Origin: Candidatus Nomurabacteria bacterium
GTDB taxonomy: Bacteria; Patescibacteriota; Minisyncoccia; Phycocordibacterales; UBA918
NCBI GenBank assembly: GCA_020632095.1
Contig: JACKGF010000001.1
Span: forward strand, 326,638 to 390,637
Reading direction: 5' to 3'
DNA length: 64,000 nucleotides
The position numbers were made by a program, and so were the translations under genes. The notes under the pieces were generated by a model. The model did not search any database and was not told where the DNA came from. It saw only the letters and a list, made by a program, of their open reading frames with translations. Of this stretch, positions 4,463-52,291 are shown in pieces. Within the stretch, counting starts at the first letter, position 1, and each line of letters opens with the position of its first letter.

Positions 4463-4717
4463 TTAATCTCTTGTCGTCGTTAACTTTGGTTTAAAAAATT
4501 CGATAAATAAGTACCAAGCAATTGCTATAACACTTAGTACTGGAAATGTATAAAAAGCACCATAATAACCATCAATAATTATAGCTAATGGCACTAAAGC
4601 GTAAGATTGATATCTTAAACTAAAAACAAGCCCCGCTAATAAAGTTAAAATTATCCAGTTATGTAAAACTGATACCGTTATTATTAAATATAATAAAATT
4701 GCTAAAAATATACTCAT
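4463..4717 (-). CDS. mreD: small polytopic membrane protein, possible minimal MreD
   Basis: 84 aa, entirely hydrophobic. It sits between mreC and mrdA, the canonical mreD position, but is shorter than typical MreD, so the call is positional. Confidence 0.4.
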   Translation of the reverse strand: MSIFLAILLYLIITVSVLHNWIILTLLAGLVFSLRYQSYALVPLAIIIDGYYGAFYTFPVLSVIAIAWYLFIEFFKPKLTTTRD

Positions 4718-5634
4718 ATAGATTCTGATTCAGGAGTTGATGAAGCTTTTGTTGAGGTACCAATTTCACCGACTGTTAAACCTTTGACCAACAACTCTGA
4801 CTTCATTAATTCCAAAATATGACTATCAATTTCAGTAGCGGAATGGGCAATCTGAGATTGTTTACCAACCGACACTTGGAACAAGCTTGAGATAGAAATT
4901 TCGGGTGTGATATAGCCATATTGTTCAGGTTGAGTTGGTAGATTTTCCACGTATGAAATTCGACCAAACACACCTGGTTCAACACTTGGAAGATAGACAA
5001 GATTACCCACAGTAATCGGAATACCTTGTGGCACTCTTACACGCGCCACCCCACCACCATACCCTTCCATAGTCGCCACCACATTAGGACCACTAATAAA
5101 TGTTGATGTCTCAAAACCTGACGTAGTAAACAATTCCACAAATGAATAATCTGTGGCCGTATGCACAACTAAACCAATTACCACATCATCCCCAATAAAT
5201 ACCGGCGAACCAACTTCAACCCCATGATCAGAACCACGGTCAATCTGCAAAAAATCATAAGGAAGCTCATCAGGCCGAGCGATCACAGCTGCTAGAATCC
5301 TTGATTCCTCTTTCGCTCCCAGTAATTGCCTTAATCTTAAATTTTCTTCCAGCAACCTTTGCTGGGTAACATTCAACCCACCAGCTATCACCAATTCATT
5401 TTCTAGTTCTTGAATTTTATTTTGAAAGTACAAACGATCACGCACCATCATTGGAAACAAGCTTGAAGACTCCTTTAGCCACACGTCTGCAGAATGAATT
5501 GGATACATTATTACGGCAGCAGTTATAGAAAAAACTTTTGGTAGAGCCAAACCAATCAATACTACCAAAACTGATAATACTACCCATCTGGCAATACTTT
5601 TACGACTAGAGTTGTGTCGCGATTGTACCCTCAT
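4714..5634 (-). CDS. mreC: rod shape-determining protein MreC
   Basis: 306 aa with an N-terminal TM segment and a coiled-coil (QNKIQELENELV...EENLRLRQLL), followed by a beta-rich domain. It is adjacent to mreB. Confidence 0.8.
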   Translation of the reverse strand: MRVQSRHNSSRKSIARWVVLSVLVVLIGLALPKVFSITAAVIMYPIHSADVWLKESSSLFPMMVRDRLYFQNKIQELENELVIAGGLNVTQQRLLEENLRLRQLLGAKEESRILAAVIARPDELPYDFLQIDRGSDHGVEVGSPVFIGDDVVIGLVVHTATDYSFVELFTTSGFETSTFISGPNVVATMEGYGGGVARVRVPQGIPITVGNLVYLPSVEPGVFGRISYVENLPTQPEQYGYITPEISISSLFQVSVGKQSQIAHSATEIDSHILELMKSELLVKGLTVGEIGTSTKASSTPESESI

Positions 5635-6685
5635 GATCTAACAATATCTCATTATATTCATCTAGATTTTCTATCACGATTCCGGCCCCACGAATCACTG
5701 CCCGCAGAGGGTCTGGCACCACTATCACTGGAACTTGTAGTTCATGCTCAAGCAAGGGCGCTAAGCCAGGAATCAAAGCCCCACCTCCAGAAAGATGGAT
5801 TCCACGCTGCATAATATCAGCCAACACTTCAGGTGGTGTTTCTTCCAAGACCGCTCTTACTGTTTCGACCATAGTGTCTACCTGACCGGCCACCGCATCG
5901 CGCACATCAGTATCAGTAACCACCACCTCACGTGGTAAACCAGTCACTACATCACGACCACGGGCTACCAACTCCTTGCCTGAGTCTGATTGTGAAATAG
6001 AAGCAAGAGCAATCTTAGCATCTTCGGCCGTCTTCTCACCAACATAAACCTTAAACTGATCACGAATATATGACATTATAGAAGCGTTGAGATGGTCTCC
6101 CGCAATACGCAGATTACGCGAAACAACCAAACCATTTAGCGATATCACAGCAATGTCTGTCGTCCCGCCACCAATATCAATAATCATACTTCCCACTGCT
6201 TTGCCAATTGGTAGCTTAGCCCCAATAGCTGCCGCCATAGGCTCTTCAATCAAAAACACATCTCGCGCACCAGCATTTTTGGCTGCGTCTTGAGCAGCTC
6301 GCATTTCTACATTTGTAATACCCGATGGTACACCAATCAACATCCGAGGTGCCACCAAAGAACGCATCTCACTTCTAACCTTACCAATTAAATAAGATAA
6401 CATTTCCTCTGTCACCTCAAAGTCAGAAATCACTCCATCCACCAACGGTCGTATCACTTCAATATGCGATGGGGTGCGCCCTTGCATCGCCTTAGCTTCA
6501 TTTCCTACCGCTACCAACTGTCCTGTCTTTTTATTTATGGCTACAATAGTTGGTTCGTTCAAAACTATACCCTTCCCTTTGACATACACTAAAGTATTAG
6601 CTGTCCCGAGGTCAATAGCCATATCTGTCGACACCATTGAAAGGAGCGCATTTAATTGTCGCGTAAAAACGTTCATTTTGAACAT
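5606..6685 (-). CDS. mreB: rod shape-determining actin homolog MreB
   Basis: It has the actin-fold phosphate-1 motif (AIDLGTANTLVYVKGKGIVLNEPTIVA) and the DIGGGTTD motif. A length of 359 aa including the N-terminal amphipathic extension is typical of MreB. Confidence 0.9.
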   Translation of the reverse strand: MFKMNVFTRQLNALLSMVSTDMAIDLGTANTLVYVKGKGIVLNEPTIVAINKKTGQLVAVGNEAKAMQGRTPSHIEVIRPLVDGVISDFEVTEEMLSYLIGKVRSEMRSLVAPRMLIGVPSGITNVEMRAAQDAAKNAGARDVFLIEEPMAAAIGAKLPIGKAVGSMIIDIGGGTTDIAVISLNGLVVSRNLRIAGDHLNASIMSYIRDQFKVYVGEKTAEDAKIALASISQSDSGKELVARGRDVVTGLPREVVVTDTDVRDAVAGQVDTMVETVRAVLEETPPEVLADIMQRGIHLSGGGALIPGLAPLLEHELQVPVIVVPDPLRAVIRGAGIVIENLDEYNEILLDHEGTIATQL

Positions 6686-10595: not shown

Positions 10596-12455
10596 CTATT
10601 TTTGCAAATCAAGAATATGACGAATTACCCGACGTAGATAGTGTTCAAAAGTTTCACCAGATTCATAAACAATACCTTGTTCATATCGCCAGCCATTCAT
10701 ATAATCAGTAATACTTTGTTTGATTTCTTGAGTTGCTCCTTCAAAACGACCAGCTAATAGTAGCGGGATCTGTAGCGGTGCTAACTTTTTAAACAAGGGA
10801 TGCTCACGTCCCTTAGGACCAGTACCAAACAAACCACTTTTCTTAAACAGCGACCACTCAACCAGTAGTTGTTGCAGACCATCATCAACTTCTTTTATGA
10901 ATAAAGGGTCGCCAACCACTGACGATGTTTTAATGTCAGAAGCTAGCGGTAAATCATTGGGTGTATGAAGTTTTGTACCTGATTCAGCCAACGAAGAAGC
11001 TTTAAGGGGAGACACGGGGGCGTCCGGCACTATTGGGGTTGCGGGGGTTTGGGTAATTGGGGGAACAGCTGGTGTATCAACTGTTGTTTGCACTGGAATA
11101 GCTTTTGGTGGTTCAAATGAAGCAGGTGTGTCTGGTACAGGCACTGGGATGTTTACTGAGACAGGAGTTTCTTTATTAGACCTAACAGTATCTGTATCTG
11201 GACCCCAAGATGACGCTATTAAATTTTCAGACCCTGCATTTAAAGAAGCTGGTGACGAAGGAAGATTATTAGGCACATTTGTATCAAGGTGCGACGGTTC
11301 ACCAAAATCAATTACTCTTGGAGTACGAACTGGCACAGGGGCCGGAATATCATAAGGAGCTACTACCGGACTATCGGGAATTGATGGTTGTGGAGATATA
11401 GGAACTTGAATTGGTGGTGAAAATGTTTCAGGTATTGGCTGTTTATTTTCTGTTTGTGGTACTGACTGAGGAGTAGCTACTGGTGAAGACTTAACAACGT
11501 TTGTTGGATTTTTTTCATATTCTTCAATAGTATTTTTTACCTCAATAAATGCGGTTTCTAGTCGCTTCATTGCAGACAAAGCAGAAGAACCACTGTTGAG
11601 CTTCTTCATAGCATCCAGCAAGGCCCCCATATACTCTCGACCAACCTCATTGTTTATATCTACTAAATTAACAGGATTACCGACCTTATCGTTAACAATA
11701 GATTTAATCTCTCTGATTCGTTGTAAATATTCACCTGGGTCATAGTTATTAGGCTCAGCCACTGGCGGAGTAGGTGCAGAAATAGGCGTAACAGGAGGTT
11801 GTGTTACCGGAGGTGTAGATATAGGTGCAGATGGCTGTGGAGGAGCGACTGGTGGTGTAACTGGGGCTGGAGCTGGAATCACTGGATCTTGGGTAACTGG
11901 TTCTGGAATAACTGGAGGAGCTGGAGTAACCGGCACTTGAACAGTTGGAGCTGGTGACGGAGGTATAACAACCTCAGGAGTTGGAGTTGGTACTGTTACC
12001 GGTACTACAGGCGGCTGAGCAATCTCAGTTGGAACTACAGGGACTTGAGGTTGGGTTGAGGGTTGAGTAGGAGGTTGAGTTTGAACCGGTGATGCAGCAG
12101 GCGCTGGATTGACCACCTGCCTAGTAACCGCAGTAGCAGAAAAAGTAGTTGGTGCAGGTCGCGACACACCAAAAGAAAACGCTGGCGCAGACCCCGGAAC
12201 AACAGCAACAGTTACTGGTACGACACCGTAGAAAACTATCTTCTGCTCAAGTGTAATCCTGACTGTTTGATCTTTACCACCATTTGAATATAAAAAGATA
12301 AGATCACGTAGTTCATTTTTTTCGGCCGCTGAAATGTCACTAGCTCTAACAGAAGCCAATAAATGAGCAATACCTTTTTGTGAATCGAGGTCAAACGTAA
12401 ATTGCTTAACGTCCCCCAAAGAACTATCGTTCGCCATATCTAAACATAATAACAC
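10596..12455 (-). CDS. hypothetical protein with long Pro/Thr/Val-rich low-complexity core
   Basis: 619 aa. A globular N-terminus is followed by about 150 aa of PxxP-rich sequence (TQPPTQPSTQPQVPVVP...), a small helical middle domain, a second P-rich stretch and a conserved-looking C-terminal domain (GPKGREHPLFKK...RRVIRHILDLQK). No family recognised. Confidence 0.6.
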   Translation of the reverse strand: MLLCLDMANDSSLGDVKQFTFDLDSQKGIAHLLASVRASDISAAEKNELRDLIFLYSNGGKDQTVRITLEQKIVFYGVVPVTVAVVPGSAPAFSFGVSRPAPTTFSATAVTRQVVNPAPAASPVQTQPPTQPSTQPQVPVVPTEIAQPPVVPVTVPTPTPEVVIPPSPAPTVQVPVTPAPPVIPEPVTQDPVIPAPAPVTPPVAPPQPSAPISTPPVTQPPVTPISAPTPPVAEPNNYDPGEYLQRIREIKSIVNDKVGNPVNLVDINNEVGREYMGALLDAMKKLNSGSSALSAMKRLETAFIEVKNTIEEYEKNPTNVVKSSPVATPQSVPQTENKQPIPETFSPPIQVPISPQPSIPDSPVVAPYDIPAPVPVRTPRVIDFGEPSHLDTNVPNNLPSSPASLNAGSENLIASSWGPDTDTVRSNKETPVSVNIPVPVPDTPASFEPPKAIPVQTTVDTPAVPPITQTPATPIVPDAPVSPLKASSLAESGTKLHTPNDLPLASDIKTSSVVGDPLFIKEVDDGLQQLLVEWSLFKKSGLFGTGPKGREHPLFKKLAPLQIPLLLAGRFEGATQEIKQSITDYMNGWRYEQGIVYESGETFEHYLRRVIRHILDLQK

Positions 12456-12497
12456 CCTTTACTTTAGTGTGAACTATTAATGCCAAAAAACTGTGTA

Positions 12498-14405
12498 TTA
12501 CAGGGTTTTGGTTTGAGCCTGATAACTATCCATTTCTATCAAAGTCATCCACTTAGCAAACAATTCTCCAAACTTCATGTCTGAATAAGAATCAAACTCT
12601 ACCCGCATTTCATCCAACAAATCTACCCACACTACAAAAGAATCATATTTTATATTTTCTTTATTTAGAATTGATTTAACCTCTTCATAGGACAAAGCAG
12701 CCAAGCTTTCTACTTCTGAGTTTTTCATATCGCACAAATAATCAAACGGACTAGCTGTCACTTCCTTAAGCCAACGCTCAAGTGCATCTATTGAAGTTTC
12801 TTCTATCTGAGCAACTGTTGTGGCAAGTACTCGGTCAAAATATTCAGGTGAACGGAAATTATCTTTAATGAACGACCGGTAAGGCTCTTCCATTAGATAT
12901 TTTCTAGTTAAAGAATTTTCATGAATTACTGATTCTGCTATTGGTATCCTTGGTACAGAGTCAGGAATAACTTTATTTATAGGATCATAAAGCTCAGTCC
13001 TAGCTACAACTCGTGACTCAGAATTAGAAATATTTTTAGGAACGAAGTTTCCTCTCACCTGATTGAATAAATTTAATTTAGGAAAAAATGCTTTAGATTT
13101 TTTAGACTTTTCCTGCACAATCTCTTCAGCTTTTTCAGCTACTGTAATAGACACTTTTCCGTCACCTTCAGTATCAGGAATAACAAACATTTCACACCGA
13201 CGTTTAGATAAAGGTAACCCCGATTCGGACTTCTCTTCCTCACAGATAGTTTCAACAAAAACTGGTTTTTTTATTTCTGCTTTTTTTGTATCACTTCTCT
13301 CAACCAATGGCAGCTTGTTATGATCTGAAACAATTTGACCTCTATCTTCTTTTTGTTTCTCTAAAGATTTTGTTTCTTCATATTTCTTCAACAGAACAAC
13401 TCTGACCGCATCGACGTTTTTTGTAATTTCAACAAATATCTGCTCATATTTTTCCAAAGCCAACATTAGAGCTGACTCAGCTTCTTTCTTTATATCAATT
13501 CCTTCAAGCCTAACCGTAAGTTTTTCGATCCTGCTTTGACTAACAGTTAATTCGGACAGATCGATAATAACTTCATCCGTCCGATAAGTAGGAGTAAACA
13601 GCGTTTCTAACTCATCCTTTACAACTTTAATTTTATCCAGTATTTCTTTAGCGTTATTTTTAACTTTTAACAATCTTTCAACCAAGTCTCCGATATGTGA
13701 ATCAATTTCACCTTCAACCTTATTTTCATTATGAATTTTATCTTGTTCCCCAGTAGAATTAACTTCCAAACTGATTGAGTCTTCAGCTTTTTCGGCCTCA
13801 GGTTTTACATAATATTTAAATTTAGTTTTGGGAACAATTTCAGTCAAAACCTCTTCTTCACCGATTTCGTTTTCTTCATCTTTTTCTACCTCATCATCTA
13901 CTTCTTCATCTTCTTCATCTTCTTCATCTTCTTCATCTTCTTCATTATCCTCACTATCACCCTCATCTAAGTAAACCGAGTAAGCTTCAATTAGCAAATT
14001 TCGTAAGGAGATTATTTCATTATATAAAGTTTGTAAACGCTCAAAATCTTCATCAGAAATTTCTTCGTCATTCGGCAAGACCTCCAATCGACACCTGTCT
14101 ACCAAGCCTTTCAATTCACTAAATTTATCTTGTAGCGAATCGTAAACTTTATCTCCTTCAATTTCAGCAGTTTTAAGCTTTTGATAGTCATCAGCCTTTG
14201 CGTCCTCCTCAAACAGAGAAGCATCGTCGTAAACTTGCTCAGCCGCTTTTAAAAATTGACCCAAGCCCTCGACTGTTTCTATATTAATAGCTTCAGTATT
14301 GTCGTCATCAGAATCATTATCAGTGTTAATAGGTGTTACTAAAGAAGTGTCATCATTGACGACATTTTCAATATCACTATTATCTTTTGATTCAAGAAAC
14401 AACAT
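12498..14405 (-). CDS. hypothetical highly acidic coiled-coil protein
   Basis: 635 aa. It contains a poly-acidic run (EDNEEDEEDEEDEEDEEVDDEVEKDEENE) encoded by a 9-bp tandem repeat, plus long predicted coiled-coil stretches. No family recognised. Confidence 0.6.
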   Translation of the reverse strand: MLFLESKDNSDIENVVNDDTSLVTPINTDNDSDDDNTEAINIETVEGLGQFLKAAEQVYDDASLFEEDAKADDYQKLKTAEIEGDKVYDSLQDKFSELKGLVDRCRLEVLPNDEEISDEDFERLQTLYNEIISLRNLLIEAYSVYLDEGDSEDNEEDEEDEEDEEDEEVDDEVEKDEENEIGEEEVLTEIVPKTKFKYYVKPEAEKAEDSISLEVNSTGEQDKIHNENKVEGEIDSHIGDLVERLLKVKNNAKEILDKIKVVKDELETLFTPTYRTDEVIIDLSELTVSQSRIEKLTVRLEGIDIKKEAESALMLALEKYEQIFVEITKNVDAVRVVLLKKYEETKSLEKQKEDRGQIVSDHNKLPLVERSDTKKAEIKKPVFVETICEEEKSESGLPLSKRRCEMFVIPDTEGDGKVSITVAEKAEEIVQEKSKKSKAFFPKLNLFNQVRGNFVPKNISNSESRVVARTELYDPINKVIPDSVPRIPIAESVIHENSLTRKYLMEEPYRSFIKDNFRSPEYFDRVLATTVAQIEETSIDALERWLKEVTASPFDYLCDMKNSEVESLAALSYEEVKSILNKENIKYDSFVVWVDLLDEMRVEFDSYSDMKFGELFAKWMTLIEMDSYQAQTKTL

Positions 14406-14425
14406 AAGAACAATTGTATTATATT

Positions 14426-17194
14426 CTACCTCATTGATGGCGCTGGTGGAACCGGTGGAGCTGGCTTTTGGTATCGAACGCGGATTTCTTCTTCTATTTC
14501 TGCTCGATCATATCCATATCTCTTATAACTATCCTCAATCAATCTTTGTACTCTGACCAAATCTGTCTCGGCTGGAGCCATAGTCCCCATACTAAAAGGA
14601 GGAGTTGGGGTACCGTTAGCTAATACCCTCATAAAAGCATTAGCATTAGGTACATTCATCAAATCACTAGCGGTAAAAGTAGGCTTAAACTGTTGTTCCA
14701 AAAACTGTGCGTCTTCCGGACCAACCCGAAAGGCCGCCATTGAACCAACGTTACCAAACACAGCATCTTTAATATCTGGCTGCAGCTGTGCGATAAACTG
14801 GTGTGCGATTGTCAGACCAAGCTTGTACTTTCGTGCTTCAGACAAAATAGCCGAAATGGAGTTAGTTGAAATATTTTGAAACTCGTCCATATGAAGATAG
14901 AACGGTGGGAAACTTTTAGTTGGGTCATCCACTCGTGACAACGCCGCCATCAAAATCTTTCCCACAAAAATCATACCGATCAAACTAGAGTTAATTTCAC
15001 CCAAACGACCCTTAGCTAAGTTGACCAAGAGAATCTTACGCTCATCCATTACCTTTCTAAAATCAAAAGCGGACCTTTGCTGACCAATAATCGGTCGCAT
15101 GTAGTCATTGGCAGTAAACACGTCAAACTTTGATACGATGTATGGCACGATATTTTCAAGTGAAGCTTCTCCACCTGCCTTGGTCGCAATTTCAGTCCAA
15201 AATTGTATTACTACAGGATTAGTTGCTTTCTCCAATTTTTTCTTTCGAAAAGGAGCATCAACCATTACTCGTCCAATATCCATCAAGGTATTACCGCTCT
15301 CAGGATCTTCCATCACCAACATTGTCGCATTACGAAAATACTGTTCAAACATCGGACCCATCGACTCCGGATTTGCTCCATACAATTTTTGGAAAATCGA
15401 GAAAAGTTCATTGACTACAAAAGTCTTCATTTCAGGCTTACTGTAGTCATACTCAAGCATATTAAGCCCAATCACCCTATCCATTCGTGATGGATCAAAG
15501 TAAATTATGTCTTGCTCACGCTCAGGCGGTACTGCCCCAAGTACATCCTCAATATCAGTACCGTGCGGATCAATCAGACAGACTCCTGACCCTTGCTGAA
15601 TGTCCTGGATAATCATGTTCTTCATCAAGGTTGTCTTACCTGTACCAGTCTGACCAATAATATAAAAATGACGCATACGATCGAGCTCACTGATGAATAT
15701 TTTTCGTTCAACGTTACGGTGCCTATTAATACCCAACAAAGTACCTTCGTTTGGCATCTCGGTTGGGGCTGGTGCGGTATTTGAGTGGGACTGCTTCACT
15801 TGTGGAGAAGCTAAGGTTCCATCACCCGGAAAATGCATTAATGTTGCTAGCTCTGCCAAAGACAGTGGGATAGTATTTTGAGTAGAAAACTGTCTAAATG
15901 AAAACGCCTTTTCTCCCATCCTTAAGTTCGAGCCGCTTAATGTCTTGAATTTAATTTGATTACCCGCGGTTGTATCAAACTGATTGAAGGTTGACTCTAG
16001 TTCAGTCAAAATTTGTTCCGCTCGATGCTTTTCCGTCGCTGACACAACCACCCTAATATTAACCTCAACTATTGGCTTGGCTATTTTCTTGCGGAATATT
16101 TCAATTGCCTGACTATCTACTTCCTTGACCGGTTCTATTTCACCCTCTTTTTTCTTAGAAGAAAAGAAAAAATCACTAACACTAGCCAAAATTTCACCGC
16201 CTACGGTACTGCGAGAAATCGCCTCGCCTGGCTTAGTTCCTTTTTCGACTAACTTTATCACTTCCTCGTAGGTTTTTTGGTAAGTTTTCTTCGGATGTCG
16301 AATTACAAACTGAATCGCTGCTCCCCCACCCTCACGCTCAATTTTAGAGAAAGCATTGAGGATCACTGCCAAAGGATCTGTAGAGAATTCGTCTTGGGTC
16401 TTGATTGAATAAATCGGGTTTTTCTTAAGTTCAAGATTGGCTACCAAAGTATGACCCTTATCAACATAGATATTGTAATCATGGACTTGTTCCTTCAGAA
16501 CAGCATTTGGGAAAAGCGATAAGGTCTGCTTTTCAAACAAAGATTTGAATTCATTTGGTACCGCTACATAAAAAATAATATCGTCACTATAATCAGCCAC
16601 TGCAATCTCAATGACGAAGTGGTTTCCTTCCTTGGCTGAACCAATGGTGCGTAGACCCGAGTATAATTGCTCCATCTTACCCACCAAATCTCCGAGCGCT
16701 AAATCATTACCATCAATCGACTTTTGGGCCGGCAATGTCACTTCATACAAGGTCATGTGCAAAACATGCCAAGGTGGTACCCCTTCTTTTAAATCAGCCA
16801 TTTCTACCCCACTTTGAATATGTTCAATTAGCCGCCTGTGAACCTCATCTATCACGTATGCGTTGGTGGTCTTGTCTAGTACCGTCAAGGCATTACGAAT
16901 TCCTTTTTCTAAGGCGATCTGCATAACTTCTTCCACCGGATCGTGCGCTGTATCAACCAACTCTACTGACTCAGCCAAAGCTTGCCCTTGTAACTCATAA
17001 TCCGGATGAAGAATTACTTTTGGTGTAAAGCTCACATACTCTTTGATCTGTTCTCGACCGAGCGTTTCACTATCGGCTTTATCTATCTCAGGCGTACGCG
17101 CCAGTACTTCACGCTCACGTTCTGCAATCTGCTGACGTAGAAAATTTATTTCCTCCTCCGGAGAAGAAAACTGCTTAGTATAGCCTTCATTCAT
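14426..17194 (-). CDS. FtsK/HerA/TrwB-superfamily P-loop ATPase (type IV secretion coupling-protein-like, soluble)
   Basis: 922 aa. It has Walker A (GQTGTGKTT), DPHG, Walker B (HMDEF) and a sensor (TIAHQFIAQL). The order and spacing resemble TraD/TrwB/VirD4 and DUF87 ATPases. The N-terminal domain of about 520 aa has no TM helices and no recognised family. Confidence 0.6.
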   Translation of the reverse strand: MNEGYTKQFSSPEEEINFLRQQIAEREREVLARTPEIDKADSETLGREQIKEYVSFTPKVILHPDYELQGQALAESVELVDTAHDPVEEVMQIALEKGIRNALTVLDKTTNAYVIDEVHRRLIEHIQSGVEMADLKEGVPPWHVLHMTLYEVTLPAQKSIDGNDLALGDLVGKMEQLYSGLRTIGSAKEGNHFVIEIAVADYSDDIIFYVAVPNEFKSLFEKQTLSLFPNAVLKEQVHDYNIYVDKGHTLVANLELKKNPIYSIKTQDEFSTDPLAVILNAFSKIEREGGGAAIQFVIRHPKKTYQKTYEEVIKLVEKGTKPGEAISRSTVGGEILASVSDFFFSSKKKEGEIEPVKEVDSQAIEIFRKKIAKPIVEVNIRVVVSATEKHRAEQILTELESTFNQFDTTAGNQIKFKTLSGSNLRMGEKAFSFRQFSTQNTIPLSLAELATLMHFPGDGTLASPQVKQSHSNTAPAPTEMPNEGTLLGINRHRNVERKIFISELDRMRHFYIIGQTGTGKTTLMKNMIIQDIQQGSGVCLIDPHGTDIEDVLGAVPPEREQDIIYFDPSRMDRVIGLNMLEYDYSKPEMKTFVVNELFSIFQKLYGANPESMGPMFEQYFRNATMLVMEDPESGNTLMDIGRVMVDAPFRKKKLEKATNPVVIQFWTEIATKAGGEASLENIVPYIVSKFDVFTANDYMRPIIGQQRSAFDFRKVMDERKILLVNLAKGRLGEINSSLIGMIFVGKILMAALSRVDDPTKSFPPFYLHMDEFQNISTNSISAILSEARKYKLGLTIAHQFIAQLQPDIKDAVFGNVGSMAAFRVGPEDAQFLEQQFKPTFTASDLMNVPNANAFMRVLANGTPTPPFSMGTMAPAETDLVRVQRLIEDSYKRYGYDRAEIEEEIRVRYQKPAPPVPPAPSMR

Positions 17195-18740: not shown

Positions 18741-19838
18741 CTATTTCTTGGCTAACACTGCCCGCTTATAAACATCCAAGTGCTCGAGAGCAACGCCGGT
18801 GCCTTTTACTACACAAAATAAAGCTTGGTCGGCGACGGCGGCTTTGACGCCAGTGCGGCGGCGGATTAACTCTGGAAAGTTACGTAACTGCGACGTACCG
18901 CCAGTCATGATGATTCCACCGTCGATAATGTCAGCCGATAGCTCAGGCGGTGTACTTTGAAACACGTGCTTAATTGCTTTAATCATCTCACGCATTTCCT
19001 TGCCAATTGCTCGCACCACTTCATTACTCTTAATTTCGGTTGTTCGTGGCAAACCTGACAACATGTCACGTCCTTTAATCTCCATCGTCAACTCTTCTTC
19101 CAGTGGCAAGGCGGAGCCAACGGTAATTTTAATATCCTCAGCGGTCTTTTCACCAATCGCTAAGTTGCGACTTTTCTTGACATAATCAATAATCGCTGCG
19201 TCGATACGGTTACCTGCACATTTTACAGAATTGGAAGCCACAATTCCCCCCAAAGAAATCACCGCTACGTCGATGGTTCCTCCTCCAATATCAACTATCA
19301 TGTGACCTTGTGGTTCATATATTGGTACCCCTGCCCCAATCGCAGCCAAAATTGGTTCTTTTACCACATAAGCATTTCTTGCTCCGGCTTTCATCGCGGC
19401 TTCCACCACAGCCCGTCTTTCGGTCGAAGTCACACCAGCTGGCACCGACAGCATGACATCAGGTCGAAATAAATTGTATCGACTCATAGACTTGCGAAGG
19501 AAGTAACGGAGCATAGCCTCGGTCACCCGGTAGTCAGCAATTACTCCGTCCTTCATCGGGCGATAGGCGCGGATATTCTCCGGTGTACGTCCAATCATGA
19601 GCTTAGCCTCTGAACCAACCGCCAGTACTTTATTGTCCTCAGACACCGCCACCACCGAAGGCTCATTCAAAACAATCCCTTGCCCCGGCACAAAAACCAA
19701 AATACTAGTCGTACCCAAATCAATCCCAATCTTCGGAGTTAAGTTACCAAACATAAGTAGTGACCATAGTATCAGGGTGGCGAGAAAAGAAAAGCAAGTT
19801 AAATGAAAACCCGATATTACAAAACAAACCATCCGCAA
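18741..19838 (-). CDS. second actin-like MreB/Mbl paralog (true start possibly internal)
   Basis: IGIDLGTTSILVFVPGQGIVLNEPSVVAV, DIGGGTID and the rest of the MreB core are present. The 365-aa ORF begins with a hydrophobic 30-aa extension that may be upstream read-through; the start may be the M of MFGNLTPK. Confidence 0.8.
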   Translation of the reverse strand: MRMVCFVISGFHLTCFSFLATLILWSLLMFGNLTPKIGIDLGTTSILVFVPGQGIVLNEPSVVAVSEDNKVLAVGSEAKLMIGRTPENIRAYRPMKDGVIADYRVTEAMLRYFLRKSMSRYNLFRPDVMLSVPAGVTSTERRAVVEAAMKAGARNAYVVKEPILAAIGAGVPIYEPQGHMIVDIGGGTIDVAVISLGGIVASNSVKCAGNRIDAAIIDYVKKSRNLAIGEKTAEDIKITVGSALPLEEELTMEIKGRDMLSGLPRTTEIKSNEVVRAIGKEMREMIKAIKHVFQSTPPELSADIIDGGIIMTGGTSQLRNFPELIRRRTGVKAAVADQALFCVVKGTGVALEHLDVYKRAVLAKK

Positions 19839-19854
19839 CTCTAGGTCGGAAAAT

Positions 19855-19872
19855 AGTACGATTAATCGTACT
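19855..19872. promoter_or_regulatory. perfect 18-bp palindrome in divergent intergenic region
   Basis: AGTACGATTAATCGTACT lies between the MreB-paralog start and the PEP-CTERM gene. It is a candidate operator, and a TTGACA box lies about 30 bp downstream. Confidence 0.3.
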
Positions 19873-20008
19873 ATTTCGGTTAGTTTTGTTTGACAGGCAG
19901 GATTTTCTATATTACTCTTTCCCTGGGTATAGTTCTATTTGTCCGAGATATTCGGACTTGCCCTGTACAACCTTTTCCATAACAGTAGACAATTTGGAGT
20001 AAAACGGA

Positions 20009-20665
20009 ATGAGAAAGATTATTGCAGGACTAGCATTCGTCCTCATGGTGTGCACTGGAGTAGCGTACGCCGGGTATGAGGAACCAATGCCAGACAGCGG
20101 CTTCCTGAACGGCTTGGGAGCATGGAGCTTCGCCGGCAACGCCCCCGTTTTCACCAATTCACAAACGGTGTCAACTGGGGGGACGGCGGGCTCGGGACCA
20201 ACATCATTCACCACCATCAGTTCGCCGGAAGCCGGCAATTACGTCGCTATCTACGGCACCGCAATTCTGATGTCGCCAGTGGTCAAGGTAAAAGTTGGCG
20301 ATAAATTCATGAGCGTCGTGGCATTTTCGGGGGAAGACTATCCCCCATTCAATGACGCCTTTACGGTTGGGCTAATCTCAGTACTGACCGGCAACACACT
20401 TGCCTCGGTAACTTGGTCCATCGACACGATCGGTGGAGCCTACAGCCTCATGCCGTGGACACAGTTTTTGCACACGTTCACCGGCGACGACGAGTTGCAG
20501 TACTTCGTGAAGATCGAGAACATTCTCGACAGACAGTTAGACAGCTGGGGCTTCTCAACCGCTGGTACCATCCTTCGCGTACCGGAGCCCGCCTCACTGG
20601 TCCTGATCGCCATCGGCCTGTTCAGCATCTTCGTACTCGCTGGCCGTCGCCGCAAGCAAAAGTAA
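20009..20665 (+). CDS. secreted PEP-CTERM-domain protein (signal peptide + VPEP-TM-RRRK sorting tail)
   Basis: The N-terminal signal peptide is MRKIIAGLAFVLMVCTGVAYA. The C-terminus, RVPEPASLVLIAIGLFSIFVLAGRRRKQK, matches the PEP-CTERM consensus. The gene looks markedly more GC-rich than its neighbours. Confidence 0.7.
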   Translation: MRKIIAGLAFVLMVCTGVAYAGYEEPMPDSGFLNGLGAWSFAGNAPVFTNSQTVSTGGTAGSGPTSFTTISSPEAGNYVAIYGTAILMSPVVKVKVGDKFMSVVAFSGEDYPPFNDAFTVGLISVLTGNTLASVTWSIDTIGGAYSLMPWTQFLHTFTGDDELQYFVKIENILDRQLDSWGFSTAGTILRVPEPASLVLIAIGLFSIFVLAGRRRKQK

Positions 20666-20687
20666 CATCGTCGGCGTCGCCGGCAAA

Positions 20688-20718
20688 GAGGCCTACCCGC
20701 AGTGGTAGGTCTTTTTTT
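20688..20718 (+). terminator. rho-independent terminator of the PEP-CTERM gene
   Basis: AGGCCTACC-cgcagt-GGTAGGTCT followed by TTTTTTTAT. Confidence 0.7.
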
Positions 20719-20756
20719 ATTTCCCCAACTGACTCTAGACAAGGTGTATAGCATAT

Positions 20757-22274
20757 ATGCTATACTGTAGTGGTATGCAACATATCGGAAATATTATCGC
20801 GGATATTCGCGAAACTCAGGGAATTACTCAGCAAGCTTTAGCCAAGAAAATTAATACCACGCAAAGTGCTATCGCTAGAATGGAATCAGGCAATCAAAAT
20901 GTCAGCGCCGATATGCTGAAGAAAATTAGTAAGGCACTAGGCAAAAACCTCATCACTCTATCCCCTGGCACCGTCAACGTTTCTATCGAAGGAGGCAAGA
21001 AGCTGACTGGAATAATTGAAACCAACACCTCAAAAAACGGCGCCGTAGCTCTCCTCTGTGCCTCTTTAATAAACAAAAACACTACCACCCTGCACCATGT
21101 ACCACGCATCGAGGAGGTCCACCGAATAATTGAGGTGTTGGAAAGTATCGGCGTCAAAGTCGACTGGCAAGGCACCACCGTAGTAATCACCCCACCCAAG
21201 CAATTTGCTTTGGATAAAATCGACGAAGTGGCCGCCCGTAAAACCCGCAGTATCGTGATGTTTATCGGACCACTCATTCACCAATTAAAATCTTTTTCAC
21301 TTCCCCAGTCTGGTGGGTGCAAGCTTGGCAGTCGCACTGTACGACCCCACTTCTACGCTCTGGAAAACTTTGGTGTCAATATCAAAACCACTGATGACTC
21401 TTTTGTAGTAAAAGTAGTCGATAAGCGACCGGCGGAAATCATTTTGTATGAATCTGGTGATACAGTGACCGAAAACGCTCTGTTTGCTGCGGCTGGTCGC
21501 ACTAACACGACCGTTATTAAATACGCTTCTGCCAACTACATGGTGCAGGAAGTTTGTGCTTTTCTACAGCTGTTTGGAGTCAAAATTGAAGGGGTTGGTA
21601 CCACCACTCTAACTGTTACCGGTGTAGCACATATAGACCAAGCGGTTGAGTATACCCTGTCCGAAGACCCGACCGACAGTATGTTTTTCTTGGCAGCCGC
21701 CATTGTCACTCAATCTGAAATCACCATCACCCGCTGTCCGATTGAATTTTTAGAAATAGAACTTCTGAAGCTAGAAAAAATGGGCTTTAAATACAAGAAG
21801 ACCAAACCATATTTCAGTCACAACTGTTCAACCAAACTAGTAGACATCACGACCAAACCGTCAAAACTAAAGGCCTTACACGAAAAAATTCACCCTTCTG
21901 TTTACCCAGGCCTAAATATCGACAATCTTCCTTTCTTTGCTGTGATTGCTACCCAAGCAGATGGACAAACTCTTATTCACGATTGGGTTTACGAAAAGCG
22001 AGCTATTTACTTCACGGAGCTAGACAAACTTGGCGCTGATACCGTATTGGCTGACCCGCATCGTATCTACATCAACGGTCCAACCAAACTCCGCGCGACC
22101 GAGCTCATCTGCCCACCTGCCCTGCGTCCCGCCACTATTCTGCTTATCGGCATGTTGGGCGCACAAGGTCAATCTATCCTACGCAATATCTACAGTATCA
22201 ATCGTGGTTACGAGAAGCTGGTGGAGCGCCTCGCTTCGCTCGGCGCCTCAATCTCCTACCTAGACGAGTTCTAA
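20757..22274 (+). CDS. murA: UDP-N-acetylglucosamine 1-carboxyvinyltransferase with in-frame N-terminal XRE-type HTH domain
   Basis: Residues about 8-65 match the XRE HTH pattern (ETQGITQQALAKKINTTQSAIARMESGNQNVSADMLKKISKALG). From LSPGTVNVSIEGGKKLTG onward the protein aligns with MurA, including SKNGAVALL, the catalytic loop GGCKLGSRTV and C-terminal NRGYEKLVERL. No stop separates the two parts. Confidence 0.8.
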   Translation: MLYCSGMQHIGNIIADIRETQGITQQALAKKINTTQSAIARMESGNQNVSADMLKKISKALGKNLITLSPGTVNVSIEGGKKLTGIIETNTSKNGAVALLCASLINKNTTTLHHVPRIEEVHRIIEVLESIGVKVDWQGTTVVITPPKQFALDKIDEVAARKTRSIVMFIGPLIHQLKSFSLPQSGGCKLGSRTVRPHFYALENFGVNIKTTDDSFVVKVVDKRPAEIILYESGDTVTENALFAAAGRTNTTVIKYASANYMVQEVCAFLQLFGVKIEGVGTTTLTVTGVAHIDQAVEYTLSEDPTDSMFFLAAAIVTQSEITITRCPIEFLEIELLKLEKMGFKYKKTKPYFSHNCSTKLVDITTKPSKLKALHEKIHPSVYPGLNIDNLPFFAVIATQADGQTLIHDWVYEKRAIYFTELDKLGADTVLADPHRIYINGPTKLRATELICPPALRPATILLIGMLGAQGQSILRNIYSINRGYEKLVERLASLGASISYLDEF

Positions 22275-35692: not shown

Positions 35693-36493
35693 TCAACAAT
35701 TATTTCCTTCATAATTATAAAAATGCTTAGGAGGTAGCGGGAAAAATGCACTAGTACGCTTCTTGTACTCTTGAAAAGCAGGATTATCAGCGAAACTCTT
35801 TTCTAACATCGGAATTCCTGATACTTTCAATATGAGAAAAGTAATGGTTAAGGGACTAATAAGTGCTATGTAGCTGAATGGCAAAGTAGCTGTCATTAAC
35901 CATATTCCCCACCACATGGTGACTTCCCCAAAATAATTTGGGTGCCGTGAATATTTCCAAAGCCCCTTGTCCATAATCATCCCGTGTGCTGGCTTACTTT
36001 TCAAAAATCTATCAAGCTGCCAATCCCCTACCACCTCAAAGAAATACCCTAACAGCCAAACCAACAGACCAATGATTGTGATTGGACCTAGTTGATAACT
36101 CGTCCCATATAAGTTTACGTGAACAAACGAATAACCAACCACGACCATCAGAAATCCTTGCAGTAAATAAACCTGCAAATAACTACGAAGATAAAACCAT
36201 CTACCCCACTCATCACGCCATTTTTTATAACGAAAGTCTTCAGGCTTTTTTAAATTTCGTAAAAATATCCTGAGTGATAACCTAACTCCCCACAAACCGG
36301 CCAGGACAGTCAGTAACAAAGACAGATTTCCACCTGACCCACTATAGTAACTAACTAAAGCAACAATAAATATCCCTATACCCCAAGCCACGTCAGCAAT
36401 ATCATTCCGCCTAATAATTAAAGACAGAAAAAACAGACTGGTCACAAATATACCAATAACAGAAAAAGTTAAGATTGATTGGTCAAAAACCAT
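35693..36493 (-). CDS. DUF1295/ICMT/steroid-5alpha-reductase-family membrane protein
   Basis: It is polytopic with the C-terminal signature GLWKYSRHPNYFGEVTMWWG that is characteristic of this superfamily. Confidence 0.6.
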   Translation of the reverse strand: MVFDQSILTFSVIGIFVTSLFFLSLIIRRNDIADVAWGIGIFIVALVSYYSGSGGNLSLLLTVLAGLWGVRLSLRIFLRNLKKPEDFRYKKWRDEWGRWFYLRSYLQVYLLQGFLMVVVGYSFVHVNLYGTSYQLGPITIIGLLVWLLGYFFEVVGDWQLDRFLKSKPAHGMIMDKGLWKYSRHPNYFGEVTMWWGIWLMTATLPFSYIALISPLTITFLILKVSGIPMLEKSFADNPAFQEYKKRTSAFFPLPPKHFYNYEGNNC

Positions 36494-36496
36494 ACA

Positions 36497-36904
36497 TTAC
36501 AAAAGGAAGGTTTTACCTAAATAATAACTGACAGCTGCTACACTACTAGTGAGAACTGTCCCCCATATCAAGTCCACCACAGTCACTAAGACCGGCCAAT
36601 CTTTTATCGTTGCGAGATTGGTAAAGTCATAGGTAGCATAAGCAAAGAACCCAAACAATGCTCCCAACATGACTGCTTTCCCGAGAGAGCCAGCTTCCAG
36701 CGCTGGATGTACCGCAAAGATAATTATCCCGACAATATAGATGAGATAAAATACAATCGCAGCCACCCAATTGACAGGGCCAAGTAGGAAGCCAATTTGT
36801 GACTGATAAAACTTGGTTGCCACTGTTCCAAGCCAAAGCATGTCTATCAGTAAAAAGGCTGGAATTGTCATCAAGTACAGATAGAAAAATTGTATAAATG
36901 TCAT
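36497..36904 (-). CDS. hypothetical 4-TM membrane protein
   Basis: 135 aa and hydrophobic throughout. The IS200 left-end hairpin lies about 45 bp upstream of its start. Confidence 0.45.
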   Translation of the reverse strand: MTFIQFFYLYLMTIPAFLLIDMLWLGTVATKFYQSQIGFLLGPVNWVAAIVFYLIYIVGIIIFAVHPALEAGSLGKAVMLGALFGFFAYATYDFTNLATIKDWPVLVTVVDLIWGTVLTSSVAAVSYYLGKTFLL

Positions 36905-36929: not shown

Positions 36930-37525
36930 TAATTGCGCCAGCCTAAACCACCGCCTCCGGCGGTGGTGATCAAAAAAAAGGTTCCACCAGTCTATCTAGT
37001 ACTATTAACATAGCTCCAGTGATGAAGGCACTGAAGCTATGAAAACACAATATAAGAAATTGTCACACACCGTATGGCTGTGTACTTATCATATCGTATT
37101 TTGTCCTAAATATCGATATAAAATCCTAGAAGGAAAAGCCGAAGTATTGGTACGAAACTACTTCTACCAACTCTGTGGAAGAAAAGACCAAGTAACGATT
37201 GAAGAAATAAATATCCAACCAGATCACGTCCACATGATAATCTCCATACCACCAAAATACTCCATTTCAGATATGATGGGATACCTGAAAGGAAAAACTG
37301 CTCTCAAATTATTTCAAGAACAAAAAACCATGACCAAACGATACTGGGGAAGACACCTGTGGAGTCGTGGGTACTGTGTATCCAGTGTGGGTCTGAATGA
37401 AGAACAGATACGAAAGTATGTGAAATGGCAACAAGAACGAGATTCTAAAGGTTAACATTAACCACTAATAATTTATGCCTTCTAGGCTGGAGTTCATACC
37501 ACCGCTTTTAGCGGTGGTTGTTGAT
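36930..37525 (+). mobile_element. IS200/IS605-family insertion sequence (tnpA-only, about 600 bp)
   Basis: A Y1 HUH transposase gene is flanked by subterminal hairpins. LE is ACCACCGCC-tcc-GGCGGTGGT at 36947-36967. RE is CCACCGC-tttta-GCGGTGG at 37499-37517. Both are preceded by related GCCAGCCT/AGGCTGG sequence. Confidence 0.75.
37039..37455 (+). CDS. tnpA: IS200/IS605 family transposase TnpA (Y1 HUH)
   Basis: 138 aa with HTVWLCTYHIVFCPKYRYKIL, the HUH motif (DHVHMIISIPP) and catalytic Tyr region (YVKWQQ). Confidence 0.9.
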   Translation: MKTQYKKLSHTVWLCTYHIVFCPKYRYKILEGKAEVLVRNYFYQLCGRKDQVTIEEINIQPDHVHMIISIPPKYSISDMMGYLKGKTALKLFQEQKTMTKRYWGRHLWSRGYCVSSVGLNEEQIRKYVKWQQERDSKG

Positions 37526-37893
37526 TGCAAAACAGTCGCAAACGAAACCCAAAGTAGGTACGGAATATTCACATAAACTACCCAAGGAAAGTATGGGTAA
37601 ATTACAAATCCAGCCCACACCATAGTCCCTAGTACTAACAGAATATCTAATGCTGCCAAGAGATTGTTTTGTAGCCCGAACTGTAGTGGAGTGAAAGCAA
37701 AGTTAAAAACTAAATTAAGAATAAAAGGTAACAACACTATGAAAGGAAGAGTCCCTTTCGTGTACTTATACGCAACAAAACCGAATGATACAGCGATTAT
37801 TAGATAAAGCACACTCCATACCGGCCCAAATACCCATGACGGTGGTGCCCACTCAGGCTTAATAAGTGTTTGGTACCAAGTATAAGTTGACAT
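37465..37893 (-). CDS. tspO: TspO/MBR family tryptophan-rich sensory protein (C-terminal tail encoded by IS200 right end)
   Basis: N-terminal WYQTLIKPEWAPPSWVFGPVWSVLYLII is the TspO signature, and there are five TM helices. The last roughly 17 codons (…TTTAKSGGMNSSLEGINY) are the reverse complement of the IS200 RE hairpin. Confidence 0.8.
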   Translation of the reverse strand: MSTYTWYQTLIKPEWAPPSWVFGPVWSVLYLIIAVSFGFVAYKYTKGTLPFIVLLPFILNLVFNFAFTPLQFGLQNNLLAALDILLVLGTMVWAGFVIYPYFPWVVYVNIPYLLWVSFATVLQSTTTAKSGGMNSSLEGINY

Positions 37894-52283: not shown

Positions 52284-52291
52284 TTAATTTG

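Follow-up and report, generated by a model that had tools for sequence, protein, structure and literature searches.

The question raised by this locus is how a single GC-rich gene for a PEP-CTERM protein came to lie in the genome of a member of the Patescibacteria, cells of which have no outer membrane, and whether the sorting signal of its product could be served there by an exosortase. The gene, open reading frame (ORF) 20009..20665 on the + strand (218 aa), is part of a 64,000-nucleotide stretch of contig JACKGF010000001.1, which was analysed as a whole and is called here the window; all coordinates refer to it. Its host is, according to NCBI naming, Candidatus Kaiserbacteria (Patescibacteria group, Parcubacteria group). 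In a preliminary description of this DNA the gene was taken for a recent horizontal acquisition or, alternatively, for a chimeric assembly join. On balance, we favour a different explanation: the gene would be one allele of a fast-evolving surface-protein cassette residing at a fixed hot spot, imported from a lineage of its own group with a higher GC content. Recognition of host cells and attachment to them by Patescibacteria, or the candidate phyla radiation (CPR), are largely unexplained, and the protein described below is a candidate host- or matrix-binding adhesin; its rate of evolution is about 10 times that of its neighbours, and it is exchanged or lost at a single fixed locus.

A PEP-CTERM protein with a module resembling carbohydrate-binding modules

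Both ends of the protein proved to be as originally described. The C-terminal tail, RVPEPASLVLIAIGLFSIFVLAGRRRKQK (aa 191-218; nt 20579-20662, + strand), consists of VPEP, a transmembrane (TM) helix and RRRKQK. With 22.7 bits for TIGR02595 (cut-off 16) and 24.2 bits for PF07589 (cut-off 20.7), both matches lying at aa 191-216, it scores above either curated threshold. A signal peptide of approximately aa 1-21 (nt 20009-20071, +) can be read from the sequence as MRK, a hydrophobic core and a terminal AYA before G. The AlphaFold2 model, built on a 38-sequence alignment (predicted local distance difference test, pLDDT, 88; predicted template modelling score, pTM, 0.77), contains an N-terminal helix at 2-16, an all-β sandwich and a C-terminal helix at 196-217. 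The fold of the sandwich, which occupies approximately aa 23-190 (nt 20075-20578, +), resembles that of beta-sandwich carbohydrate-binding modules (CBMs): porphyran-binding CBM 8xmz, CBM16, CBM61, CBM4 and CBM22. We conclude that the gene encodes a genuine PEP-CTERM protein with a CBM-like module.

Residues 22-190 belong to no curated Pfam or NCBIfam family, either in the window protein or in ten of its relatives. PF07589 is the only Pfam match of the window protein, PF02018 (CBM_4_9) and PF04862 (DUF642) remaining below the gathering threshold. The named NCBIfam PEP-CTERM families (PepA, THxN, FxDxF, QFxxD, NF038129, XDP1 and others) give 12-20 bits against cut-offs of 50-125, and these partial scores cover the tail only, in the window protein and the ten relatives alike. 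Unlike the CBMs mentioned above and those of CBM_4_9 and DUF642, the protein thus has no significant Pfam or NCBIfam CBM sequence match; it is, moreover, a stand-alone module with no enzyme attached, and has lost two residues that are near-invariant in its own family (N29 is D, E33 is L), being a divergent member. The flocculation-associated PepA of Zoogloea (NF033554) is also a small secreted PEP-CTERM protein of an activated-sludge organism, but the window protein matches it in the tail only, with 17.3 bits against a cut-off of 80, and so does not belong to that family.

Only 58 relatives, 24-38% identical, were retrieved when 1.84 billion representatives were searched exhaustively with phmmer, and no protein among 15 billion is more than 36% (phmmer) or 39% (global alignment) identical. 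Almost all of the 58 are 190-250 aa long and have the same architecture: a signal peptide, the motifs NGxFE.G.LTGWT, DY.P(F/Y)ND, VG.YG.T.WT and N..D....S..DN, and then VPEP, a TM helix and a basic cluster. By a profile search the family was extended to 255 members, the named ones coming from Pirellula, Algisphaera, Moorena, Desulfobacter, a gammaproteobacterium, Burkholderiales and Kaiserbacteria; a few distant members bear PF02018 (CBM_4_9) or PF04862 (DUF642). When the tails of the Patescibacteria clade were tabulated by eye, VPEP was found exact in 7 of the 11 copies despite overall identity of about 35%, which hints at selection on the motif. The 464-aa protein P0048 (P and L numbers are our handles for proteins and loci) has the family jelly-roll domain fused to a long C-terminal region without a PEP-CTERM tail, so this module also exists in another architecture.

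A fixed site between mreB and murA

The gene stands between two conserved neighbours. To its left, a second MreB/Mbl paralog is encoded at 18741..19754 on the - strand (NF010539, 442 bits, and PF06723), with a conserved start at ATG 19754-19752 rather than at the upstream TTG 19838. To its right, at 20775..22274 on the + strand, lies the gene for MurA fused to an XRE-type helix-turn-helix (HTH) domain (PF01381 and PF00275; NF006873, 309 bits), the conserved start of which is ATG 20775, the mechanically called ORF beginning at 20757. All 80 loci retrieved by means of this neighbouring HTH-MurA are metagenome-assembled genomes of Patescibacteria, several of them from the HK-STAS series of Shatin activated sludge (PMC8518188). 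HTH-MurA is 64-87% identical in the 80 species.

The divergent arrangement of mreB (-) and HTH-murA (+) recurs in about 75 related species, usually with a gap of 60-120 bp between the two genes. Homologs of the window gene fill this gap in L006, L013 and L019, in L010 and L086 (inverted), in L087-L090 (P0060), and in L093 and L094 (P0025). Among the occupied species are those represented by GCA_020428745.1, GCA_020428785.1, GCA_964515625.1, NASQAN2015_010_A_bin.14 and, for L013, the metagenome-assembled genome HKST-UBA39 (contig JAGQMJ010000006.1). Each occupant has its own ribosome-binding site and its own terminator, differing in sequence but alike in relative position, 20-30 nt before a palindrome preceding murA. 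In the window, this perfect 20-nt palindrome, GTATAGCATATATGCTATAC, is located at 20746..20765, directly 5' of murA, and delimits the insertion site on the right. Six occupied-site loci that were aligned all have the identical core, ATAGCATATATGCTATA, and the palindrome can still be recognised, with a few substitutions, in the ten other relatives inspected, those with an empty site among them. It is probably an autoregulatory operator of the gene for the HTH-MurA cell-wall enzyme.

In a neighbour-joining tree of MreB and MurA, all occupied sites fall into one subclade of 12 species, 7 of them occupied and 5 empty. The nearest relatives of the window species are L087, L093 and L013, and all four members of this group are occupied. 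Identity between occupants is only 25-49%, whereas MurA of the same loci is 82-94% identical and MreB is 88-95% identical, the latter range holding across the 12-species subclade. The closest pair, L013 and L093, is 49% identical in the gene and 94% in MurA. Paralogs outside the site were found in L091, which is from the same genome as L019, and in L095. The L095 copy (1710-2348) lies directly upstream of tuf and rpsJ on an AT-rich contig, is itself preceded by a truncated ORF, and groups with the Patescibacteria clade.

Genes unrelated to the family were also found in the mreB-murA gap of other species, at L075 5267-5848, L076 4210-4866, L082 5238-5807, L084 5211-5723, L064 3890-4243 and L018 5595-6001, so the gap is a general insertion hot spot. 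The insert of L076 encodes a 218-aa protein with 5 TM segments, and those of L082 and L084 encode proteins of 170-189 aa that look alike by eye.

Replacement-type flexible genomic islands are hypervariable surface-structure loci placed between conserved genes. The site described here resembles them in its conserved flanks, homologous but very divergent alleles carried by related genomes at one position, patchy occupancy, deviant GC content of some alleles and lack of mobility genes. It differs in that a single small gene is involved rather than a multi-gene cluster, and in that neither polymorphism of alleles within the population nor recombination tracts in the flanks were seen. A search of metagenome contigs with a five-sequence alignment produced one locus only, from an unrelated organism with 67% GC.

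Composition and extent of the GC-rich tract

The gene was proposed to be a compositional island, and its composition does deviate from that of the other genes. Its GC content is 55.4% (0.554) in a window of 40.4% GC, and its GC content at third codon positions (GC3) is 0.676, as compared with a mean of 0.362 (standard deviation 0.060, maximum 0.515) for 58 further non-overlapping ORFs of the window, each 100 aa or longer, giving z = 5.2. The excess is due mainly to C in the third position, which amounts to 0.42 in the gene and 0.14 in 19 pooled host ORFs; the ATP synthase, RRF and HPF genes of the host range from 0.09 to 0.15. The value of nearly 58% GC given at first sight is right as a peak (58.3% in the 300-nt segment 20400-20699) but not as a mean.

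According to a three-segment maximum-likelihood fit, the GC-rich tract extends from 20037 to 20705, with 57.0% GC against about 45% in the immediate flanks. It therefore begins about 10 codons inside the coding sequence and finishes within the terminator, the promoter region, 5' untranslated region and first codons being of host-like composition. The terminator postulated for the gene was confirmed by a terminator scan as a hairpin with a 13-pair stem followed by a T-run at 20685..20716 (+). Two ORFs overlapping the gene had both been regarded as spurious antisense frames; both exist, but only 20440..20754 is antisense, 20413..20751 being on the + strand in another frame.

Origin of the GC-rich allele

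Homologs at the same site in six other species of the subclade, together with the profile and indel evidence given next, indicate that the gene family is resident in this clade. When scored alone, the domain of the window protein gives 82.3 bits on a hidden Markov model (HMM) of nine Patescibacteria-clade members and 72.7 bits on an HMM of 58 others, whereas for outsiders (Burkholderiales, Pirellula and four others) the Patescibacteria HMM gives scores 60-97 bits below those of the other one. Apart from the window protein and a partial copy of it (P0001), five members of the clade have the indel signature S[TD]xG..G[PA]TxFxT, and no other protein among 180 of the family does. The idea of a recent horizontal acquisition can thus be retained in part: the GC-rich allele is possibly recent, but the family is not a newcomer at the site, and it may be the replacement of the allele, rather than the arrival of the gene, that is recent.

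Carriers of GC-rich cassettes exist inside the subclade, since the host of L010 has 53% GC and its copy, at the same site, a GC3 of 0.64. High GC3 is shared by some of the nearest alleles as well: in L013 it is 0.79 against 0.44 in the host (z = 10.1), and in L093 it is 0.63 against 0.44 (z = 2.7), while the copies in L006, L019, L087, L091, L095 and L010 are within approximately 1.6 standard deviations of their hosts. The window, L013 and L093 also have in common a left-flank motif and a promoter-like element, in which TTGACA-N17-TAC(C/T)(C/T)T is aligned upstream of all three alleles. Identity of the flanks is 72-80% at the nucleotide and 82-95% at the protein level, from which synonymous sites between these species should be saturated. 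A gene inherited vertically over such a period should already have acquired the host composition, which favours later import of an allele over retention.

We therefore lean towards the following course of events, of which the direction and the mechanism of replacement are what we infer. The cassette site is that between the second mreB paralog and HTH-murA in a Kaiserbacteria-group subclade from activated sludge. The GC-rich allele, from about codon 10 to the terminator, would have been brought in after the species split from its sampled relatives, by replacement between the conserved flanks. Its source would be a GC-richer lineage with the same cassette, most plausibly an organism of the Kaiserbacteria group. 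In the window, mreB and murA themselves exceed the background GC3 by 0.13-0.14, compared with a clade mean of 0.03-0.05 (about 2 standard deviations), a weak hint of a longer imported tract.

Several observations weigh against import. No donor was identified, the best relatives being 33-39% identical, and no DNA similarity to loci outside the species was found. Nor did the flanks contain an outlying block of high identity to any relative (150-nt blocks, 63-85%; means per relative, 72-80%); hence there is no recent partner among the sampled species, and homologous replacement is not demonstrated. All contigs encoding the exact MurA or MreB carry the identical allele, without population polymorphism, and neither an empty site nor an alternative allele within the species is on record. 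An exact 33-mer of the host-like 5' end has no match in JGI metagenomes. The HMM margin in favour of the Patescibacteria clade is modest (9.6 bits), and in neighbour joining the position of the window protein could not be settled owing to its long branch, which groups with a spurious match, P0050. Changes of N29 and E33 may have altered ligand binding of the protein. Finally, GC-rich alleles and the common promoter-like sequence are found in three of the four immediate-clade species, and such a shared state could be old and kept by a gene-specific force.

The last point leads to a serious rival to import, which we nevertheless hold to be rather unlikely: that the gene is an old resident, inherited vertically since the ancestor of the window species, L087, L093 and L013, and that its high GC3 is actively maintained. 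GC-biased gene conversion at a recombination hot spot, or selection on mRNA or codons, might be responsible, although in our view there is little likelihood of either. Occupancy of the site in all four species agrees with such a history, as do the fact that L013 and L093 are closest to each other both as genes and as hosts, the left-flank and promoter-like sequences which they share with the window, and the elevated GC3 of mreB and murA in the window. It is, however, difficult to reconcile with the sister allele of L087, which is host-like, or with other occupants (L006, L019, L087, L075, L076, L082 and L084), none of which has elevated GC; the site as such does not, therefore, raise GC. Elevation of GC throughout the site was rejected accordingly, as other occupants, both of the family and unrelated, are host-like. 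Translational selection was rejected as the cause of the high GC3 as well, because housekeeping and typically highly expressed genes of the window (ATP synthase, RRF, HPF) are poor in third-position C.

Recent direct transfer from a Gram-negative producer of exopolysaccharides, for example a floc-forming member of Burkholderiales in the same sludge, is improbable. The family is indeed common in Burkholderiales, Planctomycetes, Cyanobacteria, Desulfobacter and Gammaproteobacteria, a GC-rich composition would suit such donors, PEP-CTERM has been described as restricted to Gram-negative bacteria (PMC3237569), and PEP-CTERM proteins are important in floc formers of activated sludge, at least as Gao 2018 is cited in PMC11393006. 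Nonetheless, the closest Gram-negative relative is only about 34% identical, homologs occupy the identical site in the six related species, and both the HMM scores and the shared indel connect the window protein with the Patescibacteria clade, contrary to the Gram-negative source that the preliminary description implied. Moreover, a GC3 of 0.68 would suggest a donor of approximately 53-57% GC rather than a betaproteobacterium of 65% GC. No hallmarks of mobility were detected around the gene: it has no flanking direct repeats, no integrase, transposase or other mobility genes among its neighbours and no Rfam match, and the only tRNA is located far away, at 52291. A phage vector was rejected, as no relatives were found on viral contigs.

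The probability that reads of a GC-rich organism were joined chimerically into a Kaiserbacteria contig during assembly or binning is practically negligible: the GC shift is abrupt and two assemblies break beside it, but homologous genes stand at the same place in related species, the gene is neatly framed by its ribosome-binding site, terminator and the conserved murA palindrome, and contigs from four separate samples (ERZ27248697, SRR8206192, SRR14234111 and SRR12358676), produced by different assemblers (MEGAHIT k141, Logan), cross both junctions at 100% identity. In two further contigs, JAGQMI010000070.1 (GCA_020428725.1) and ERZ28655857, the sequence begins within the gene and runs on over the right junction with 99.97-100% identity, so that six independent contigs, at 99.97-100%, rule out a chimera. 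Their start points, at 20066 in JAGQMI010000070.1 and at 20084 in scaffold_15701 of ERZ28655857, are just past the GC transition at 20037. No repeat that would cause the breaks at these two positions was found, and they could be due to strain variation or to a drop in coverage.

The exosortase question

The lack of a visible exosortase, remarked upon at the outset, holds within the 64-kb window. An exosortase is a protein of about 8 TM helices (PF09721, TIGR04178, TIGR02602), and no match to exosortase or archaeosortase models was obtained among window ORFs with at least 3 predicted TM segments, which are RseP, DUF2238, DUF1295, DUF2177, TspO, AtpB, an ion channel and small proteins without a family match. 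Similarly, the polytopic ORFs of related loci, 1.08 Mb of DNA in all (mainly the murA neighbourhood), included no exosortase, and around nine Patescibacteria copies no gene called within 6-10 kb encodes PF09721. When an HMM of the tail was run on 2,541 ORF tails from approximately 1.1 Mb of Patescibacteria DNA, a sample of loci rather than whole genomes, only this family matched; one genome has two paralogs of it (L019 and L091).

These results can be set against the canonical PEP-CTERM/exosortase system (EpsH, XrtA; Haft 2006, in the form summarised in PMC3237569), with which the window protein shares the signal peptide and the succession of Pro-Glu-Pro, TM helix and basic cluster. Its N-terminal domain family is also common to many proteins of exosortase-bearing phyla. 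In contrast to that system, the host is a member of the Patescibacteria (CPR) and not a Gram-negative bacterium with an outer membrane, no exosortase accompanies the gene over the distances given above, and the single tail-bearing family differs from the situation in classical genomes, which often encode at least 20 such proteins. All species with PEP-CTERM have been reported to have an exosortase, and in the rhombosortase system the enzyme tends to adjoin its target when there is a single one (Haft & Varghese, PMC3237569). The restriction of PEP-CTERM to Gram-negative bacteria stated in the same paper is contradicted here, since the host and the 80 related loci are Patescibacteria. If the analogy with rhombosortase applies, the expected adjacency of the enzyme to a single target does not hold either. 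In the searchable literature there was no paper linking exosortase or archaeosortase with Patescibacteria or CPR biology, and PEP-CTERM or exosortase were mentioned together with Patescibacteria, Parcubacteria or OD1 only in unrelated contexts.

Archaeal PGF-CTERM proteins and archaeosortase A provide an instructive comparison, as they represent a homologous class of sorting signal in an envelope without an outer membrane, and show that such tails can function in monoderm-type envelopes. They differ from the present case in the motif, which is PGF rather than PEP, and in that no archaeosortase homolog was found in the window.

As to the function, the gene would be expressed from its own promoter-like element, ribosome-binding site and terminator, and its product exported by means of the Sec signal peptide. 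We infer that the CBM-like beta-sandwich is then displayed outside the cell, where it would probably bind a polysaccharide of the host cell or of the floc matrix, and that the C-terminal VPEP, TM helix and RRRK hold the protein at the membrane. The tail might act as a plain membrane anchor; alternatively, an exosortase-type enzyme, not found so far, might cleave and re-attach it. A bolder proposal can be put forward, to which we assign little probability: the Patescibacteria clade may have domesticated the PEP-CTERM family and may use it without a canonical exosortase, the tail being either a plain anchor or processed by a sorting enzyme of a new kind; the hypervariable CBM-like module would act as an adhesin that chooses the host cell or exopolysaccharide, and its alleles would be exchanged between species at mreB-murA.

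The processing of the tail by exosortase is the question that makes this locus worth following up. The locus offers a test case for the rule that PEP-CTERM proteins are confined to Gram-negative bacteria and invariably accompanied by an exosortase. Should the enzyme be missing from closed genomes of these species, the tail must have another mode of action here; should it be present, the range of exosortase biology includes cells that lack an outer membrane.

Other features of the locus

Several further elements were recognised between mreB and the gene. A 26-nt perfect palindrome, AAATAGTACGATT/AATCGTACTATTT, is situated at 19851..19876, between mreB and the promoter-like element. Within it is the motif ATAGTAC, which relatives likewise conserve next to their mreB start. 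The palindrome lies between the arms of a further inverted repeat (19819-19830 / 19878-19889). The putative promoter at 19890..19918 (+), read from the sequence as TTGACA, a spacer of 17 nt and TACTCT, was passed over by a consensus promoter scan because its -10 hexamer matches the consensus at 3 of 6 positions only. The ribosome-binding site GGAG (19996..19999, +), 9 nt 5' of the ATG, is aligned in all occupants of the site.

Fusion of MurA with an N-terminal XRE-type HTH domain is present in about 80 Patescibacteria species. The two MreB paralogs of the window are 40% identical; the canonical one (5606-6685) adjoins mreC (4714-5634), and the other, at 18741-19754, is beside the hot spot. Upstream of the latter, on the - strand at 10596-17194, a DUF8128/DUF87 VirD4-like ATPase (922 aa) is encoded, followed by two proteins of about 620-635 aa without a family match, and this block is syntenic in L087-L090 and L093. 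Among the genes of the window are those for a VirD4/DUF87-type ATPase, MreC, RseP, a type IV pilin and a divergent PriA. Two neighbouring genes at 35693-36904 (-) encode membrane proteins, DUF2177 (135 aa) and DUF1295 (266 aa, similar to steroid reductases and methyltransferases), and near this pair lies a TspO homolog (37465-37893), an unexpected content for a reduced genome.

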